DNA of 6,748 nt from Opitutales bacterium (GCA_024407725.1 JAKSVZ010000024.1:1-6748), one strand, 5' to 3'; positions 1 to 6,748 are shown, numbered from the stretch's first letter. Numbers and translations: made by a program. The notes: generated by a model not told the origin, from the sequence alone.

Positions 1-540
<540 letters not shown>

Positions 541-669
541 AAATTATTAACTAATTTCTCAAGAGATATCCTTTTGCTCTTTTACTAATGTTTTACTTCA
601 TTGCTGAAGTTATCGTATTTTACTACGTTAAAGTTTTTATTCGGTTTCCCGAACCTATGCACAAAATAA

Positions 670-682
670 ATTTCAAAGAACA
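670..682 (-). promoter_or_regulatory. Candidate boxA-like antitermination motif in the rRNA leader
   Basis: The minus strand reads TGTTCTTTGAAAT. This resembles rRNA-leader boxA (E. coli type TGCTCTTTAACAA; a TGTTCTTTGAAA-type variant is what I recall from Firmicutes). It lies between the candidate promoter and the 16S 5' end. It sits almost at the predicted start site, so either the motif or the promoter call may be wrong. Confidence 0.3.
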
Positions 683-688
683 CTCTCA

Positions 689-716
689 CAATTACCTATA
701 AACAAATAACCGTCAA
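689..716 (-). promoter_or_regulatory. Candidate sigma70-type promoter for the rRNA operon
   Basis: The minus strand reads TTGACG (716..711), then 16 nt, then TAATTG (694..689). A long A/T tract (about 717..760) lies upstream and could act as an UP element. The -10 is weak (G at position 6). Motif inspection only. Confidence 0.25.
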
Positions 717-777
717 GTGTTTTTTGAAAAATTTTTTGAAAAAATAAAAATTTTATCCCAAACGGAACTAAACCTGC

Positions 778-1896
778 TTAGTTTTGAGCTTCAGCAGCGA
801 CCAATTCATCAAAAGTATCGCGATGAGGATACGCATCCTGAATCTTAAATGCCCGCAGGTTTTCGACACAACGCGCTTCGTACGCATCATAATTTTCTTT
901 GGTCAACCGATGCTTATCGTGCTCAATACACCACGCCATATAACGGTTGATATCATGATGATAGTGCGCCGGGTCAAAATAATTAGCTAAATTATTAACA
1001 AAAGCGCAATCATACCAACCGTAGATTTTTACATTTGGAAGATCAGCGCAAGTAGTTACCAAATGGCGCCAAAAGGTAAAACTGGCTTGTAAAAAATACG
1101 GATGGTGAATTCCCTGAAAAAATCGGCACCATACCCAAGAAACTGGTGTTATAGGTAAAAAGAATTGAACATTCGGATAGCGACGAATCAAACGCAATAA
1201 ACAATCGATATCGCAAAACAAATGGTTATTGGCCAATGAAAATTTAGAAAAATCGGGCAATAAGCGCCGCTGCTTTAATAAATTATCATTCCTTATCCAA
1301 TTTTTACAGGCCTTACTCCTATCGGGAACTATAGTTTTTACCGTAAAATCGTAATCTGAAAAGCAAGCAGTTTTTGTGCATAGTTTTAGGCGATGCATAA
1401 TAACATGGGAAGTCGTCAACCAAACCGCGCTATCAAAGCTGCTAATCAACGGATGTTTTAAACGCTCCCGCATTTCAGGAGATACTGGCGGATTTTTAAA
1501 GAAAGCAAAAGCATCAATCCCCCATAACACGTACTTTATTTTTCCCGACGCCAACGCTTGCTCTGCCCAAAACGCCAACGGCTGCGATTGACCAAGTCCT
1601 AAACAAAGCATCACAGAAGCTTGAGCGCCCATAGCCACATCCACATCTTCAATAGCAAAGCCTGCTGTATGCGAAGAACCTACAATTATTCCATTGTGTT
1701 CGTTAGATTGCACGATATTCCGACGTACTGCGCCAATATAATAAATGTTGCCATTATCAAAAGGGTGCAAATTCGTATTCCACCGCGTTTCGTGAAACAA
1801 ATGATAAGGATCTATCATCCATACCACCAATGGACTAATACCCCCAAAAAGTACTATCAAAAGCAAGAAACATAGGACGTTTCGTCGCGAGCACAT
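778..1896 (-). CDS. Paralog A of an uncharacterised N-terminally membrane-anchored protein family (putative DltD/SGNH-like esterase or acyltransferase)
   Basis: Long minus-strand ORF. The track ORF (778..1926) starts at a TTG. The ATG at 1896 (MCSRRNVL...) aligns with the MNARRN(V/I)L start of paralogs B and C and is preferred. It has a hydrophobic helix right after the start, an IDPYHLFHETRWN block, GSSH, and a C-terminal ~100 aa more than 85-90% identical to B and C (…HLVTTCADLPNVKIYGW…DPAHYHHDINRYMAWCIEHDKHRLT…). No recognisable named family from sequence alone. Confidence 0.8.
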   Translation of the reverse strand: MCSRRNVLCFLLLIVLFGGISPLVVWMIDPYHLFHETRWNTNLHPFDNGNIYYIGAVRRNIVQSNEHNGIIVGSSHTAGFAIEDVDVAMGAQASVMLCLGLGQSQPLAFWAEQALASGKIKYVLWGIDAFAFFKNPPVSPEMRERLKHPLISSFDSAVWLTTSHVIMHRLKLCTKTACFSDYDFTVKTIVPDRSKACKNWIRNDNLLKQRRLLPDFSKFSLANNHLFCDIDCLLRLIRRYPNVQFFLPITPVSWVWCRFFQGIHHPYFLQASFTFWRHLVTTCADLPNVKIYGWYDCAFVNNLANYFDPAHYHHDINRYMAWCIEHDKHRLTKENYDAYEARCVENLRAFKIQDAYPHRDTFDELVAAEAQN

Positions 1897-1967
1897 ATTT
1901 AGACTTAAAAAATAACGAAATTTCAATGATAGATGCTGTCAAACCATATTACATGGCAGATCGCACA
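1897..1967 (-). repeat. Degenerate relic copy of the ftsQ 3' end (duplication footprint) in the B-A spacer
   Basis: aaatttcaatgatagatgctgtcaaaccatattacatggcagatcgcacatcattgctc aligns with 3151..3212 and with the authentic ftsQ 3' end at 4379..4440. It is more diverged than the copy at 3126..3203. Confidence 0.55.
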
Positions 1968-3125
1968 TCATTGCTCCGCCGCGACCAATTCGTCAAACGT
2001 ATCGCGATGTGGATAGGCATTCTGAATCTTAAATGCCCGCAGGTTTTCAACACAGCGCGCTTCGTACGCATCGTAATTTTCGACGGTTAACCGATGCTTA
2101 TCGTGCTCGATGCACCACGCCATATAACGGTTGATATCTGGATGATAATGGTCTACATCGCAAGAATTCGCTAAATTATTAACAAAATCACAGTCATGCC
2201 AACCGTAGATTTTGACATTTGGAAGATCAGCGCAAGTAGTTACCAAGTGACGAGTCCCAAAGAAAAACGCATCATAAATTTGCGTTGGAGATAAAGTGCG
2301 TTGGAGCAACTTAAATATATACCGATATACCGTCCAACAATTGGGCGCTATTACTAAGTGAAATTGAACGGAAGGATAGGTACGTATAATATGCAATAAA
2401 GGTTCCATCCTATTCTTCACGAGTGAGCTCGTCACCGAAGACTCTGTAATACAATAATGCTCAAAATTATGTGCAGCCTTCTGGGTTTCAGCTAATGTTT
2501 TAGGTTGAATCCAGGGAGTGAAGTACTTTTCTCTCTGCGAAAACCAATTATGGATATCATCTACCTGATCCCACGCATGAAATCTTTCATTTTTAGTTAT
2601 CTCCCAATGTCTCGGAATAATATAAAATCCTGGCAAACTACGTAGACACTTTAAATTCCATAAACATAGCCAAGGATGCGCCACATAAGGTTTTACCGCT
2701 TCCAATGCTTCATCCTTTTTACTAAGCGATAACCAACACCAAGGATCCATGAGGATAAAAGCATGTTTCAGATGCCCACTAGCGATGCTACGATTTAACC
2801 ATTCCTGACACATTTCCATGCTTTGATTAGCATTACATAATTTTAACGTTCCTTTAGCGCCTACTGCCTTGGCTAAATCGCTACCTTTAAAATTCATCGA
2901 ATGGGAAGATCCTAATAGAACGCTATCGTAATCGCCTGACTTAAGGTAGGTCTCAATTTGACCTAAATTGAGCAGACTTTGGCTCCCAAACCATAAATTC
3001 TTATTCCACCGCGTTTCGTGAAAGATATGGTAGGGATCGATTGACCATATTATGAGTGCCTCTGCTAACCAAGGAAAAATCAACGCAAACAATAAGAACC
3101 ATAAAACGTTTCGGCGCGCATTCAT
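1968..3125 (-). CDS. Paralog B of the uncharacterised membrane-anchored family (intact, 385 aa)
   Basis: ATG at 3125, TGA at 1968..1970. It has an N-terminal TM helix (VLWFLLFALIFPWLAEALIIW), IDPYHIFHETRWN, GSSH (2901..2912), DVDH (2148..2159) and the conserved C-terminal block. By eye about 60% identical to paralog C over the first ~160 aa and almost identical over the last ~100 aa. Confidence 0.85.
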   Translation of the reverse strand: MNARRNVLWFLLFALIFPWLAEALIIWSIDPYHIFHETRWNKNLWFGSQSLLNLGQIETYLKSGDYDSVLLGSSHSMNFKGSDLAKAVGAKGTLKLCNANQSMEMCQEWLNRSIASGHLKHAFILMDPWCWLSLSKKDEALEAVKPYVAHPWLCLWNLKCLRSLPGFYIIPRHWEITKNERFHAWDQVDDIHNWFSQREKYFTPWIQPKTLAETQKAAHNFEHYCITESSVTSSLVKNRMEPLLHIIRTYPSVQFHLVIAPNCWTVYRYIFKLLQRTLSPTQIYDAFFFGTRHLVTTCADLPNVKIYGWHDCDFVNNLANSCDVDHYHPDINRYMAWCIEHDKHRLTVENYDAYEARCVENLRAFKIQNAYPHRDTFDELVAAEQ

Positions 3126-3203
3126 ACTTACTTAGGCTTTACGAATGATGAAAATTCAATGGTAGGTGCTGTCAAACTCATATTAACGCGACAAGGCTGT
3201 ACG
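3126..3203 (-). repeat. Relic copy of the last ~75 nt of ftsQ (duplication footprint) in the C-B spacer
   Basis: 3108..3163 is identical to 4336..4391 (56 nt, spanning the paralog start codon and the ftsQ stop/C-terminal codons). Similarity continues with substitutions to ~3203 (= ~4431). The reverse translation still reads ...RVNMSLTAPTIEFSSFVKPK*, like the true FtsQ C-terminus, but it has no upstream gene body. Confidence 0.8.
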
Positions 3204-3632
3204 TTATTGCTCAGCAGCAACCAACTCATCGAAGGTATCGCGATGAGGATACGCATCTAGGATCTTAAACGCACGTAGGTTTTCAACACAGCGCGCTTCG
3301 TATGCATCGTAATTTTCTTTGGTTAACCGATGCTTATCGTGCTCAATACACCATACCATATAACGGTTGATATCTGGATGATAATGGTCTACATCGCAAG
3401 AATTCGCTAAATTATTAACAAAATCACAGTCATGCCAACCGTAGATTTTGACATTTGGAAGATCAGCGCAAGTAGTTACCAAGTGACGCCACAAGGTAAA
3501 TAAGTCATCACAATACTGAACTAACGATATTCCCTTTCCACAATCCATTGTGCACACCCTACTATAGGTCGTCCATGCATTAGGCGTTAATAAGATATAA
3601 AACTTGACAGATGGATTTTTCTCGGATGACAC
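3204..3632 (-). CDS. Paralog C, C-terminal fragment (conserved block; probably not an independent gene)
   Basis: The track ORF starts at a GTG (3630..3632) with no evident ribosome-binding context. The frame is open further upstream to 3698. The protein is near-identical to the C-termini of A and B (WRHLVTTCADLPNVKIYGWHDCDFVNNLANSCDVDHYHPDINRYM…DELVAAEQ). Confidence 0.5.
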   Translation of the reverse strand: MSSEKNPSVKFYILLTPNAWTTYSRVCTMDCGKGISLVQYCDDLFTLWRHLVTTCADLPNVKIYGWHDCDFVNNLANSCDVDHYHPDINRYMVWCIEHDKHRLTKENYDAYEARCVENLRAFKILDAYPHRDTFDELVAAEQ

Positions 3633-4353
3633 ACGACATAGTGTCGTTGACTCGTTGACTCGTTGACTCGTTGACTCGTTGAGTCGTTGAATAAGTATTC
3701 AACTTATAAACACTTTGTAAATATTGACAGTGTTTTGCAAAATACCCAAAACTTTGAGAGCAATAAGGAAACCAACTATGAACCTCATTTAAATTATTCC
3801 ATGTCCAAAAATGGCTATTATGTTGGGATACGAACCTATGAGTAATGCAGTAAAATGCAGCCAACGAACATATGGTTTTTAGATTAAATAAACACAAGTA
3901 AGGATGGTTAATATAAGGCTTTGCTGCTTCTAATGAAGAGTCTATACCTGAATCATATAAAAACCGAAGTGCGTCTATCTCGATAAAACAATGTTTTGTT
4001 TTTCCTGTTGCCAAACTTTTTTGCAACCACATCAACTTCATTTGTAGACTTTGTCCCCCATTGCACAACTTCAGCACGCCTTTAGCCCCAACCGCTTTAG
4101 CTAAATCTCTACCTTGAAAGTTCATGCTATACGAAGAACCTACAAGAATACTATCGTAATTATTACTTCTTTTGAGGTAGGTTTCGATTTGACCTATGTT
4201 GATTAAGGGTTGACTACCAAACCACAAATTCTTGTTCCACCGCGTTTCGTGAAAAATATGATACGGGTCAACAATGTAAACCATCAACGGACCAATCGTC
4301 CAAAATAGGAACGTGAAGATAAGAAAATACAGAATGTTTCGGCGCGCATTCAT
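3580..4353 (-). CDS. Paralog C, N-terminal fragment as currently translatable (257 aa; the last ~20 aa are out-of-frame tail)
   Basis: The ATG at 4353 is 2 nt after the ftsQ stop. MNARRNILYFLIFTFLFWTIGPLMVYIVDPYHIFHETRWN and GSSY blocks match paralog B. After the repeat tract the translation (DTMSCVIREKSICQVLYLINA*) has no counterpart in A or B. Confidence 0.7.
   Translation of the reverse strand: MNARRNILYFLIFTFLFWTIGPLMVYIVDPYHIFHETRWNKNLWFGSQPLINIGQIETYLKRSNNYDSILVGSSYSMNFQGRDLAKAVGAKGVLKLCNGGQSLQMKLMWLQKSLATGKTKHCFIEIDALRFLYDSGIDSSLEAAKPYINHPYLCLFNLKTICSLAAFYCITHRFVSQHNSHFWTWNNLNEVHSWFPYCSQSFGYFAKHCQYLQSVYKLNTYSTTQRVNESTSQRVNDTMSCVIREKSICQVLYLINA
3644..3690. repeat. Octanucleotide tandem repeat (TCGTTGAC)n; coding-sense unit GTCAACGA; ~5.9 copies
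   Basis: Read directly from the sequence: TCGTTGAC at 3644-3651, 3652-3659, 3660-3667 and 3668-3675; TCGTTGAG at 3676-3683; TCGTTGA at 3684-3690. The unit length of 8 is not a multiple of 3. Confidence 0.95.
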
Positions 4354-4355
4354 AC

Positions 4356-5165
4356 TTACTTAGGCTTTACGAATGATGAAAATTCAATGGTTGGCGCCGT
4401 CAAACTCATATTAACGCGGCGGACCGTACGCCATTGCTCTGGAGAAAGCGATTTTAACAACATCTGAGTCTTGTTCAATGCTTCCTCTGGGTGATCAATC
4501 GGGAACACCAAAATCCAATTGCCTGCCATGCGCAACTCAATTGTTTGCCATCGTCGCGCCAAATAAGGATCGAAATGCTTTAAAGAAATGGATTTTACCG
4601 ATAAGAAAAGCTCGGGCGCTTGCTGCAAACAACGGATTACCTGGACAATACCTGAAAATCCTACGATGCGCTGCTGTTTAAGGATTGTTTTGGGGATATC
4701 TACCAACAGAACACATTGTTTCAAGGCCTCTGGACCTTGTTGAATGGGCAAGAAAATAGAGCCATCTTCGGCAACGCAACCCCAAGCACGTTTTTTCTTT
4801 TGAATCACGACCATCCTGGCAAAGGGCTTCCGTTCGTTAATACTAACGCGTAAGGTATTCGGAAATTCGCGCACCAACGTAACTGATTCTATCTGGGAAT
4901 ACTGCAAAATCTGCTGTTGCAAATCCGACAAATCAATCGACAGCAAGTTTTGGCCTACTGGCAGTTTAACGTGCGTGCAAAACCAATGCTTATTAATTAC
5001 GCCGTTCGTAGCGTATACTATTTGCCTAAAGGGTTGAATGGCTTTTCGTTGTCCACTCCAAGTAATAATCCCGATAAGGCAGGCAATGATTCCTAAAAGC
5101 GCCCAATAAAGCCGTATGCGCTTACGCTGGTTACCATCAAAAGTCGTATCGTTGTCTGCATTCAT
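4356..5165 (-). CDS. ftsQ: Cell division protein FtsQ (POTRA-domain, single-pass membrane protein)
   Basis: 269 aa. It has a basic N-terminus and one TM helix (LYWALLGIIACLIGIITW), followed by a POTRA-like segment (LLSIDLSDLQQQILQYSQIESVTLVREFPNTLRVSINERKPFA). It sits immediately downstream of ddl, as in dcw clusters, with its start 4 nt after the ddl stop. Confidence 0.8.
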   Translation of the reverse strand: MNADNDTTFDGNQRKRIRLYWALLGIIACLIGIITWSGQRKAIQPFRQIVYATNGVINKHWFCTHVKLPVGQNLLSIDLSDLQQQILQYSQIESVTLVREFPNTLRVSINERKPFARMVVIQKKKRAWGCVAEDGSIFLPIQQGPEALKQCVLLVDIPKTILKQQRIVGFSGIVQVIRCLQQAPELFLSVKSISLKHFDPYLARRWQTIELRMAGNWILVFPIDHPEEALNKTQMLLKSLSPEQWRTVRRVNMSLTAPTIEFSSFVKPK

Positions 5166-5169
5166 GTTT

Positions 5170-6090
5170 TTACGCTTTCAATTGAGCAATTGCTGGCTCT
5201 ACGATGCGCTGAATCAAGGCATCAAACGACATCCCAACTGCAGCTGCGCTTTTGGGAACCAAACTTTGGTCCGTCATTCCAGGAATCGTATTCATTTCCA
5301 AAAACCAAGGCTGATTATTGGCATCTAAAACAAAATCTGCGCGGCCAAAATCTCGGCAATGTGCCACCTTAAAAAACTCAACGCCTATAGCTTGAACGAT
5401 CTGCGCCACTTTATCGCTCAAATCTGCAGGAAAATGATACACACAAGCACCGGCAGTATATTTATTGTGAAAATCGTAAAAGCCTTGTTGTGGGCAAATT
5501 TCACCAACCGCCAACGCTTGTCCTTGCAAAATTCCAACTGTTATTTCGCGTCCATGAACGTAAGGTTCTATCATCCACAATCCTTGTCTAACCGATGACC
5601 AAGCGCTTTGTAATGCGTCGAAATTCGGGCAAATTTGAACCCCCAAGCTGCTTCCTTTGTTTTCGGGTTTTAACACAAATGCGGTTGAGTTTAAGGTTTT
5701 TTCTAACTCAGAATGCGATAATTTCTTCCCTGGAGTGACTGCCACTCCCAATAGCACCGGAAGCCCCTTCTGACGCGCCAACTGCTTACTTTGTAGCTTG
5801 TGCATACAAAGTGAACTGGCTGCCGAATCGCTACCTACATAAACAAACCCTTGCTGTTCCAACAAGGCTTGCAATTGGCCATCCTCACCGAAATCTCCAT
5901 GCATAACAGGGAAAATTACATCGGTGCTTGGATTCAAGCCTGAGGGCAATTGATTCTCCTCCAAACAGATAGCCTGAGTAGGATAATATCGTTTTAGAAC
6001 ATCAATAACCGGTCCTGCCGAATGGATTGAAACTTCTCGCTCTCCACTCTGCCCTCCATAAAGTACTACTATTTTTTTAAAGCAGCTCAT
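5170..6090 (-). CDS. ddl: D-alanine--D-alanine ligase
   Basis: 306 aa with typical Ddl/ATP-grasp motifs: KIVVLYGGQSGEREVS, FPVMHGDFGEDGQLQALLE, VLKPENKGSSLGV, FLEMNTIPGMT. ATG at 6088..6090 overlaps the end of murB by 14 nt. Confidence 0.95.
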   Translation of the reverse strand: MSCFKKIVVLYGGQSGEREVSIHSAGPVIDVLKRYYPTQAICLEENQLPSGLNPSTDVIFPVMHGDFGEDGQLQALLEQQGFVYVGSDSAASSLCMHKLQSKQLARQKGLPVLLGVAVTPGKKLSHSELEKTLNSTAFVLKPENKGSSLGVQICPNFDALQSAWSSVRQGLWMIEPYVHGREITVGILQGQALAVGEICPQQGFYDFHNKYTAGACVYHFPADLSDKVAQIVQAIGVEFFKVAHCRDFGRADFVLDANNQPWFLEMNTIPGMTDQSLVPKSAAAVGMSFDALIQRIVEPAIAQLKA

Positions 6091-6748
6091 GCCATTCTTT
6101 CCCCAACAACTGTACTTCTGGCTCCAACCACACCTGTTTTTGATTATAGACCTGCGATCGAACCGTACGTACTAATTGTACCACATCCATAAAACGCCCT
6201 TCGCCCCCATTGACAACAAAATTAGCATGTTTCGGGGATACGTATAGTGACCCAATCTGCAAACCTTTCAAACCACAGGCATCGATCAATTGACCCGCAG
6301 GAGCAAGTGTTGGATTTTTAAAAAAACAACCCAAGGTATAACCGTTTGGTTGATGCTCCGAACGGCGCTCACGCAACAACAACCGTTGTTGATGAATCCT
6401 GTCGGTTGAATCCACAGAACCGGTTAAAATTGCCGATACCGCCACCCCATTGCGCAGGGTTTCGCATGAACGATAAGCATAGGTTAATTCCGAATGCTGG
6501 GTTGTATGCAATTGTCCGCTGCTATCCACCCAATCGATTTGCTCAACGCGATCCAAAATTCCAATACCCTGTGTCCCCGCATTCATCCTTAAAGCACCAC
6601 CGATGGTACCTGGGATTCCGTCTAAAAACTCGAAGCCACCAACCCCTTCCCGTTCCGCTTCTTCCAAAAACATGGGCAAGGAGCAACCCACGCCCACGCG
6701 ATACCGCCGAATACCTTTAGGCGCTGCATCATCGATCAAGGCACATTG
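6077..6748 (-). CDS. murB: UDP-N-acetylenolpyruvoylglucosamine reductase (MurB), C-terminal ~220 aa; 5' end outside window
   Basis: MurB-type motifs are present: GIPGTIGGALRMNAG, YAYRSC, GCFFKNP, ACGLKGLQIGSLYVSPKHANFVVN. The frame remains open to the window edge, so the Met at 6739 in the ORF track is internal. The FAD-binding N-terminal domain is missing from the window. Confidence 0.9.
   Translation of the reverse strand, partial: QCALIDDAAPKGIRRYRVGVGCSLPMFLEEAEREGVGGFEFLDGIPGTIGGALRMNAGTQGIGILDRVEQIDWVDSSGQLHTTQHSELTYAYRSCETLRNGVAVSAILTGSVDSTDRIHQQRLLLRERRSEHQPNGYTLGCFFKNPTLAPAGQLIDACGLKGLQIGSLYVSPKHANFVVNGGEGRFMDVVQLVRTVRSQVYNQKQVWLEPEVQLLGKEWHELL

Follow-up and report, generated by a model that had tools for sequence, protein, structure and literature searches.

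Two-gene systems such as PatA/PatB, AlgI/AlgJ/AlgX, WssH/WssI and PatA1/PatB1 pair an MBOAT with an extracytoplasmic SGNH-like transferase. The MBOAT of such a pair ends in an acyl-tyrosine shuttle motif, the hexapeptide F-x-Y-x-x-F, whose tyrosine is auto-acetylated in PatA, the acetyl group then being handed to the SGNH partner PatB (PMC12148441). In the Dlt pathway, the shuttle motif is found on the microprotein DltX (PMC12148441). The window analysed here, the whole 6,748-nucleotide contig of an Opitutales metagenome-assembled genome (MAG; locus tags MJ218_03930 to MJ218_03945), carries three co-oriented paralogous genes, A, B and C, behind ftsQ. By analogy with the systems above, the products of A, B and C are quite probably type-II membrane-anchored, extracytoplasmic DltD-like SGNH proteins that act as dedicated partners of AlgI/PatA-type MBOATs. 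This degree of confidence applies to the explanation as a whole, in which the role of the family, its amplification in this lineage and the switching of copies are taken together.

The association with MBOATs is apparent from the genomic surroundings of the family. At locus L001, the homolog P0003 (51% identical to B) begins 27 nucleotides after the gene for a 483-residue MBOAT, and at L001, L037, L038/L039 and L161 the next gene upstream, in the same orientation, encodes a Pfam MBOAT. A tblastn search with the L001 MBOAT placed it co-oriented and directly upstream at L008-L036 as well, in Puniceicoccales, Opitutales, an Isosphaeraceae MAG and many Lachnospiraceae. Just before their stop codons, all but one of the partner MBOATs end in FLYWQF, FLYWNF, FLYFNF, FLYVNF, FLYINF or FIYFNF; the exception, L014, falls outside this count, as its sequence read-out extended beyond the motif into the next gene. 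Because they score below the cut-off of the DltB model (178 bits vs 375), the partner MBOATs are regarded as generic MBOATs; they are of the AlgI/PatA type, with a built-in shuttle motif. The pairs at L037 and L038 sit amid rhamnose-synthesis, UDP-glucose dehydrogenase, GT4 and Bac_transf genes, and the ftsQ-linked copy is flanked by peptidoglycan genes and, at its other end, by a GT2 gene and glmM. These neighbouring genes make envelope glycans the likely acceptors; for the ftsQ-linked copies, peptidoglycan is a sensible candidate, if an unproven one. The same MAG encodes an MBOAT, MCQ2956267.1, which clusters at 90% identity with the L001 and L161 MBOATs; its contig and that of the family member P0012 are both reported as 11,433 nucleotides, an equality of size that suggests that the two genes are adjacent.

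The family is widespread yet unnamed. No credible family emerged when the window proteins and 39 diverse members were scanned against Pfam and NCBIfam, in agreement with the earlier note on this DNA, which had recognised no named family and had proposed such scans of the three proteins as a check. PDB sequence-profile searches with two alignments gave chance matches only (for example, NaMN adenylyltransferase and IL-10), a literature search for a DltD-like protein together with an MBOAT gave no match, and all database names of the family are "hypothetical", including that of the RefSeq protein of the cultured Kineothrix alysoides. A word-indexed search returned only 22 relatives, all from Opitutales or Puniceicoccales MAGs; with an exhaustive profile search, the number of cluster representatives rose to 2,962 at E <= 1e-3, of which 722 passed E <= 1e-30.

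An AlphaFold model built from the 39-sequence alignment (predicted local distance difference test, pLDDT, 88; predicted template-modelling score, pTM, 0.89) begins with a helix and has five parallel strands with intervening helices; residues ~130-250 form a helical insertion. In a Foldseek search against the PDB, the top nine matches are all DltD (3bma, 6o93, 6pfx; best E 1.5e-3, probability 0.99), followed by a platelet-activating factor (PAF) acetylhydrolase-like protein (2hsj), GDSL lipases and sialate O-acetylesterases. An earlier model from a shallow alignment (pLDDT 69), superseded by the deeper one, gave weaker and mixed matches to the same families and to PatB. Given the modest Foldseek scores and low global template-modelling scores, the model is taken to indicate a fold class, not membership of a family. 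Across the 39 diverse members, Asp30, Pro31 and His326 are invariant, and Gly72, Ser74 and Asp323 are found in >=90%; all six are kept in A, B and C, with C retaining G-S-S(Y) and DVDHYH. The resulting order, G-x-S followed by D-x-x-H, is the canonical SGNH order, as in DltD. All of the shared sequence blocks quoted in the earlier note are present in the proteins, as is the N-terminal helix that it had described: each copy carries an RR motif and, after it, ~20 hydrophobic residues (Kyte-Doolittle 19-residue maxima 2.2-2.8), modelled as a helix at residues 2-29, which would fit an N-in/C-out orientation as judged from hydrophobicity and the model.

DltD resembles the window family in several respects. 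In addition to being the best structural match, it has ~390 residues and, as predicted for the window family, a single N-terminal membrane anchor and an extracytoplasmic domain, carries its catalytic serine near the N-terminus and Asp-x-x-His near the C-terminus, and is encoded next to an MBOAT. However, no DltD match was obtained at E <= 1 in Pfam or NCBIfam for the window proteins or the 39 members, nor was any DltD chain found at E <= 10 in the PDB profile search. No dltA, dltC or dltX (AMP-ligase, carrier protein) lies beside the pairs at L001, L037 and L038, and the partner MBOAT carries its own C-terminal F-x-Y-x-x-F, unlike the MBOAT of the Dlt pathway, which relies on the motif of DltX (PMC12148441). 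Membership of a true Dlt pathway was rejected on these last two grounds, the lack of dltA/C/X and the position of the shuttle motif. Verrucomicrobiota, which are Gram-negative and among the hosts of the family, are not known to make teichoic acids. A 47-residue open reading frame (ORF) is present just upstream of the L001 MBOAT (8071-8214), at the position of DltX in dlt operons; it is probably irrelevant, because it has no family match and the MBOAT has a shuttle motif of its own.

The PatA/PatB group also resembles the window family in its genetics: both consist of an MBOAT gene and a gene for a protein that is, or in the window family is predicted to be, extracytoplasmic and SGNH-like, both have the shuttle motif at the C-terminus of the MBOAT (PMC12148441), and both have peptidoglycan or polysaccharide synthesis genes nearby. 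PatB was also among the weak fold matches of the first model. In contrast, the ALGX model (PF16822) of the AlgX/AlgJ/PatB type matched one of the 39 members, and that weakly (E 0.0084), and none of the window proteins. In AlgJ/AlgX-type proteins, the Asp-His pair precedes the serine in sequence, whereas the serine precedes Asp-His in the window family. We know of no PatA/PatB-type system that forms a multigene family with one MBOAT and many partners, nor of one with intragenic octamer repeats.

Together, the MBOAT partnership and the DltD/SGNH-like predicted fold assign the family to the MBOAT-SGNH pairs, a known class of glycan O-acylation systems (PMC12148441). Within that class it counts as a new, unannotated partner family, one that extends a known mechanism and overturns none. 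The proposal of an undescribed envelope-modification system therefore does not hold, since the family is a conserved downstream partner of MBOAT genes; the structure prediction and Foldseek search that the earlier note had recommended, with DltD best and SGNH esterases next, likewise do not point to a system of an unknown kind. By analogy with PatA/PatB and DltB/DltX/DltD (PMC12148441), the MBOAT would take an acyl group in the cytoplasm, probably acetyl from acyl-CoA, and would load it, on the external side of the membrane, on the tyrosine of the F-L-Y-x-x-F peptide at its C-terminus. The partner would accept the acyl group on Ser74, through a candidate Ser74/Asp323/His326 triad, and would pass it to a hydroxyl of a cell-envelope glycan. 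If copies are switched on and off by slipped-strand change, variable surface acylation would be the consequence. For annotation, the name of SGNH-like MBOAT partner could be given to ~3,000 clusters of "hypothetical" proteins, a large share of them in gut Lachnospiraceae and Verrucomicrobiota; the MBOAT half alone is currently recognised in such pairs, which a Pfam or NCBIfam model from our alignment A2 would correct.

Further genes accompany the pairs in Lachnospiraceae. A DUF6077 protein and a membrane protein of ~270 residues precede the MBOAT-partner pair (L038 1939-3887, L022 7414-8235), and a second GDSL/SGNH-looking anchored protein follows the pair on the opposite strand at L022 11030-12016; all three may be further conserved components.

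All genes of the window lie on the minus strand, in the order murB (partial), ddl, ftsQ, C, B, A, 16S. The features are as follows.

5170-6090, minus strand: ddl, upstream of ftsQ
4356-5165, minus strand: ftsQ, 269 residues (POTRA_1 match, E 1.7e-9), its last ~20 codons copied with each duplication
3204-4353, minus strand: copy C, interrupted, as an N-terminal ORF at 3580-4353 (257 residues) and a C-terminal ORF at 3204-3632 (142 residues)
3644-3690, minus strand: octanucleotide tandem repeat, (CAACGAGT)n on the coding strand, 5.9 units (Tandem Repeats Finder score 87, 97% matches; repeat family D4)
3616-3620, minus strand: A5 run in GAGAAAAATCC, site of the homology-supported frame break in C (homolog comparison)
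3126-3190, minus strand: copy of the ftsQ 3' end including the stop codon and 2-nucleotide spacer, directly upstream of B (tblastn; repeats D3, D6)
1968-3125, minus strand: copy B, intact, 385 residues (ORF call, AlphaFold model)
2904-2906, 2157-2159 and 2148-2150, minus strand: Ser74, Asp323 and His326, candidate triad of copy B
3033-3038, minus strand: Asp30-Pro31 of copy B
1897-1944, minus strand: remnant of the ftsQ 3' end, more diverged, upstream of A (repeat family D6, junction alignment)
778-1896, minus strand: copy A, intact, 372 residues from the ATG at 1896 (ORF call, homologs)
1-540, minus strand: 5' part of the 16S rRNA gene, immediately downstream of A (Rfam SSU_rRNA_bacteria, 480 bits, model positions 1-536)

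The three co-oriented paralogs that the earlier note had described behind ftsQ (A 778-1896, B 1968-3125, C 3204-4353) are thus present. The length of ~372-385 residues that it gave for every copy applies to A and B and not to C, which is split in two, and which the NCBI annotation likewise gives in pieces. The start of A at 1896 is supported by the homologous N-terminus MCSRRNVL; NCBI annotates a later start that yields 360 residues. A is the most divergent of the three and is of a subtype in common with P0009, P0010 and P0019. The ATG of C lies 2 nucleotides past the ftsQ stop, as previously noted, and the same 2-nucleotide junction is found in two other metagenomes. No terminator-like hairpin was found in 500-4600, where 3.2 would be expected by chance, in keeping with the tight packing proposed before, and A, B and C are probably co-transcribed with murB-ddl-ftsQ.

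The junctions within the array record how it arose. Upstream of B, the last 20 codons of ftsQ are repeated with 100% protein identity (tblastn, FtsQ residues 250-269, at 3131-3190), and a copy is also found before A (D6 reference copy, 1893-1944), with which the junction copies of B and C share 79% and 73% identity. These tails, comprising the last 50-65 nucleotides of ftsQ, were absent from the earlier account. As B and A are each preceded by such a tail, the duplicated unit was the ftsQ tail plus the gene, which establishes that the array formed by tandem duplication at this site and in which direction it did so. The copies are old: synonymous differences among them are near saturation (proportion of synonymous differences, pS, 0.6-0.8 over the first ~300 codons, most of the length), and their amino-acid identity in the centres is only 13-44%. 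Two independent metagenomes carry the order murC/murB-ddl-ftsQ-[one copy, same 2-nucleotide gap]-GT2-accA-glmM. By comparison of these assemblies, the linkage to ftsQ is conserved as a single gene and the triplication is specific to the lineage of the window. Of the multi-copy set in a division operon that had been called unusual, the placement is ancestral for a single copy, leaving the triplication as what sets this lineage apart. The linkage to ftsQ is kept in those two metagenomes; the family at large is widespread, and most of its members lie away from division genes, for which reason a division-specific function was rejected.

The amplification extends beyond the window. At least six paralogs are found in this MAG (A, B, C, P0009, P0012 and P0013) and a single MBOAT was detected; UBA3869 has at least five family loci. 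Common to all copies are the membrane anchor, the DPYH motif and a catalytic C-terminal region of ~100 residues; at residues ~100-285 they differ almost completely. In close relatives, residues 31-90 and 286-385 are conserved at 75-98%, whereas residues 100-285 are conserved at only 27-50%. Between B and C, pS falls to 0.11 in part of the C-terminal region, and C and P0013 share 87% identity over 420 nucleotides and then 100% over 250 nucleotides, which together indicate gene conversion. The constant ends may dock on a shared MBOAT and do the chemistry, and the variable helical centre (residues ~100-285) may form a cap that chooses the acceptor. It is conceivable, if on balance unlikely, that one MBOAT serves at least six interchangeable periplasmic transferases whose centres are shuffled by gene conversion and each of which is switched by the octamer, some being wired into a division/peptidoglycan operon. 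If so, gut Opitutales would possess a combinatorial, heritable and reversible acylation of peptidoglycan or surface polysaccharide, which might help, for example, to evade phages, lysozyme or host antibodies. The expansion, in which one MBOAT is accompanied by many partners with constant ends and hypervariable centres, together with conversion and an unstable repeat, suggests a way to diversify surface-glycan acylation in gut Verrucomicrobiota. Such diversity would matter for encounters with phages and hosts, and acceptor choice by SGNH transferases could usefully be studied in this system.

Copy C breaks just downstream of the octamer repeat and at the A5 run. The repeat itself is open in all three frames. 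An ORF of 382 residues is restored in C by deleting one A, by adding one unit or by removing two; removing one unit fails. By homology, the frame of C is correct through the repeat (..VIRE..) and breaks at the A5 run, where the near-identical P0013 has A4; the protein obtained on removal of one A matches best, and homologs read ..IVRESPSVNFY.. across the site. The number of units varies among copies: ~6 in C, ~5 in P0013 (same MAG, other contig, with the 250 nucleotides preceding the repeat identical to those of C), ~4 in the MBOAT-adjacent copy of L161, ~3 in L007 (UBA3869), and ~1 in P0002 and P0003, which are intact. The P0013 and L161 copies are out of frame by unit number alone, and the L007 copy has two frame breaks. 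In these respects, the repeat-bearing copies resemble the phase-variable surface-glycan genes of Haemophilus, Neisseria and Campylobacter, where an intragenic repeat, with a unit that is not a multiple of three, lies in the gene of an envelope-modifying enzyme. As in such contingency loci, the number of units varies among related copies, and a change of +1 or -2 units restores the frame of C. Unlike in contingency loci, each repeat-bearing copy was seen out of frame, among four sequences in total. The known classic contingency loci use homopolymers or tetra-, penta- or heptanucleotide units. When metagenome contigs were scanned for the octamer pattern, which proved too unspecific, the 120 loci returned were unrelated and none held a family member. 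The suggestion that the set might be switchable is therefore borne out in part: at least one copy, C, has the anatomy of a switchable gene, and switching itself is plausible but unproven. That the repeat-bearing copies are functionally switched seems to us somewhat less than an even prospect.

Several observations weigh against the explanation of A, B and C as DltD-like MBOAT partners in a switched, amplified set. The fold assignment comes from a predicted structure with Foldseek E-values of 1.5e-3 at best and global template-modelling scores of ~0.35, and it receives no support from Pfam, NCBIfam or PDB sequence profiles. No MBOAT adjoins the three window copies or the UBA3869 copies by tblastn, the use of a distant MBOAT being assumed. 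Three of the six paralogs of this MAG are disrupted. All four repeat-bearing copies (C, P0013, L161 and L007) are out of frame, which fits pseudogene decay equally, and no multi-unit allele in frame was recovered with the repaired C protein as query, a weak negative with four sequences. Runs as short as A5 are poor switches, and it is at A5, not in the octamer, that C breaks. Finally, the SGNH fold also houses esterases, and the direction of the reaction is not established by the fold. The proteins might accordingly be extracytoplasmic esterases that remove O-acyl groups, like the peptidoglycan O-acetylesterase Ape and the sialate O-acetylesterases, with different paralogs trimming different acylated glycans. 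The presence of sialate O-acetylesterases, GDSL lipases and the PAF-acetylhydrolase-like 2hsj among the fold matches agrees with this, as does the absence of an MBOAT beside the window copies; we nevertheless hold it to be rather improbable, as across phyla the family lies almost always immediately downstream of a shuttle-motif MBOAT, the arrangement of a transferase pair, the best fold matches are to the transferase DltD, and the N-terminal anchor tethers the protein next to the MBOAT. An envelope-modification system that is genuinely new, linked to cell division and unrelated to known families, as the earlier note had envisaged, would account for the failure of Pfam, NCBIfam and PDB sequence searches, for names that are all "hypothetical", and for a position behind ftsQ conserved in three assemblies, the window and two others. 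It is barely credible in view of the MBOAT partnership, the DltD/SGNH-like predicted fold and the Ser...Asp-x-x-His pattern, which point to the known MBOAT-SGNH class, and of the distance of most members from division genes.

The array might also be a set of decaying redundant duplicates, in which C, P0012, P0013 and the UBA3869 copy in L007 are pseudogenes and the octamer is unselected, without regulated switching. The four out-of-frame cassettes and the failure to find an in-frame multi-unit allele speak for decay, together with the two frame breaks of L007, the homology-supported break of C at the A5 run and the truncation of half of the MAG paralogs. However, the two halves of C are otherwise free of stops and keep all catalytic motifs, the perfect identity of C and P0013 over 250 nucleotides implies recent exchange and not neglect, the repeat is nearly perfect and open in three frames, and the MBOAT-adjacent L161 copy is disrupted solely by its unit number; random unit numbers alone would, moreover, put two thirds of copies out of frame. 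With only four sequences, phase variation and decay are not separated, and we regard decay as a serious contender, if not quite a probable one. Far less weight is given to an assembly artefact, whether a chimeric join or a repeat expansion in a fragmented MAG, a concern that the earlier note had raised. The contig is just 6,748 nucleotides long and ends in a 16S gene, the fragment at 1-540 marking both the edge of the array and that of the contig; related MAGs often carry family genes at contig ends, and related lineages have one copy at this site. Still, copies with pS of 0.6-0.8 and 13-44% central identity cannot stem from the collapse or expansion of one sequence, and each internal junction has its own diverged ftsQ-tail copy. 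Both types of outer junction were also seen independently, the ftsQ-to-copy junction in two other samples and the copy-to-16S junction in one other genome. Collapse or expansion in assembly was rejected because synonymous divergence is near saturation, and an artefact of any kind is very improbable.

The disruption of P0012 (MJ218_03760, same MAG) is of a related kind. It is truncated inside the conserved ..LPNVKIYGW.. block, where it reads ..LPNVKKSTVG..; judged from the protein, the break resembles an insertion or deletion within the AAAA stretch of GTCAAAATC. Homopolymer indels would thus disrupt two paralogs of this MAG, C and P0012, either as real mutations or as sequencing errors.

The rRNA operon is flanked by family paralogs, at a place that varies by lineage (window 1-540; L002 1-1204; L007 9274-9706; L163 9077-13570). 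The window reads ftsQ-C-B-A-16S, and L002 reads 23S-5S-[P0010]-GT2-accA-glmM; single-copy lineages have ftsQ-[copy]-GT2 and, apart from it, gyrB-gyrA-...-[P0008]-rRNA operon. This gene order suggests that the rRNA operon reached the ftsQ locus by recombination between paralogs, which appear to serve as recombination sites that shifted it between loci. In the AT-rich spacer of 237 nucleotides between A and 16S, the window has a perfect, self-complementary 12-nucleotide tandem, TTTTTTGAAAAA x2 (720-743), close to a TTGACG promoter-like hexamer; it may be part of the rRNA promoter region.

At the other end of the window (4356-6748), neither ftsA nor ftsZ is found downstream of ftsQ. In relatives (e.g. 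L160 6175-9998), the gene upstream of ddl encodes a 700-residue product with a faint Mur-ligase match and MurB domains, which may be a murC-murB fusion; the window shows the MurB part only. In three related genomes, a phage-like or gene transfer agent-like block (large terminase, portal-sized ORFs and a faint Phage_cement_2 match) lies right next to family copies or an MBOAT-partner pair (L161 2883-6120; L004 5397-15116; L001 16332-21191). A gene for a CesT-type protein, a type III secretion chaperone, is found near the family locus in two gut Opitutales genomes, at L001 2872-3333 and L005 4984-5445; such a gene would not be expected in Verrucomicrobiota and may be a sign of life in association with a host.

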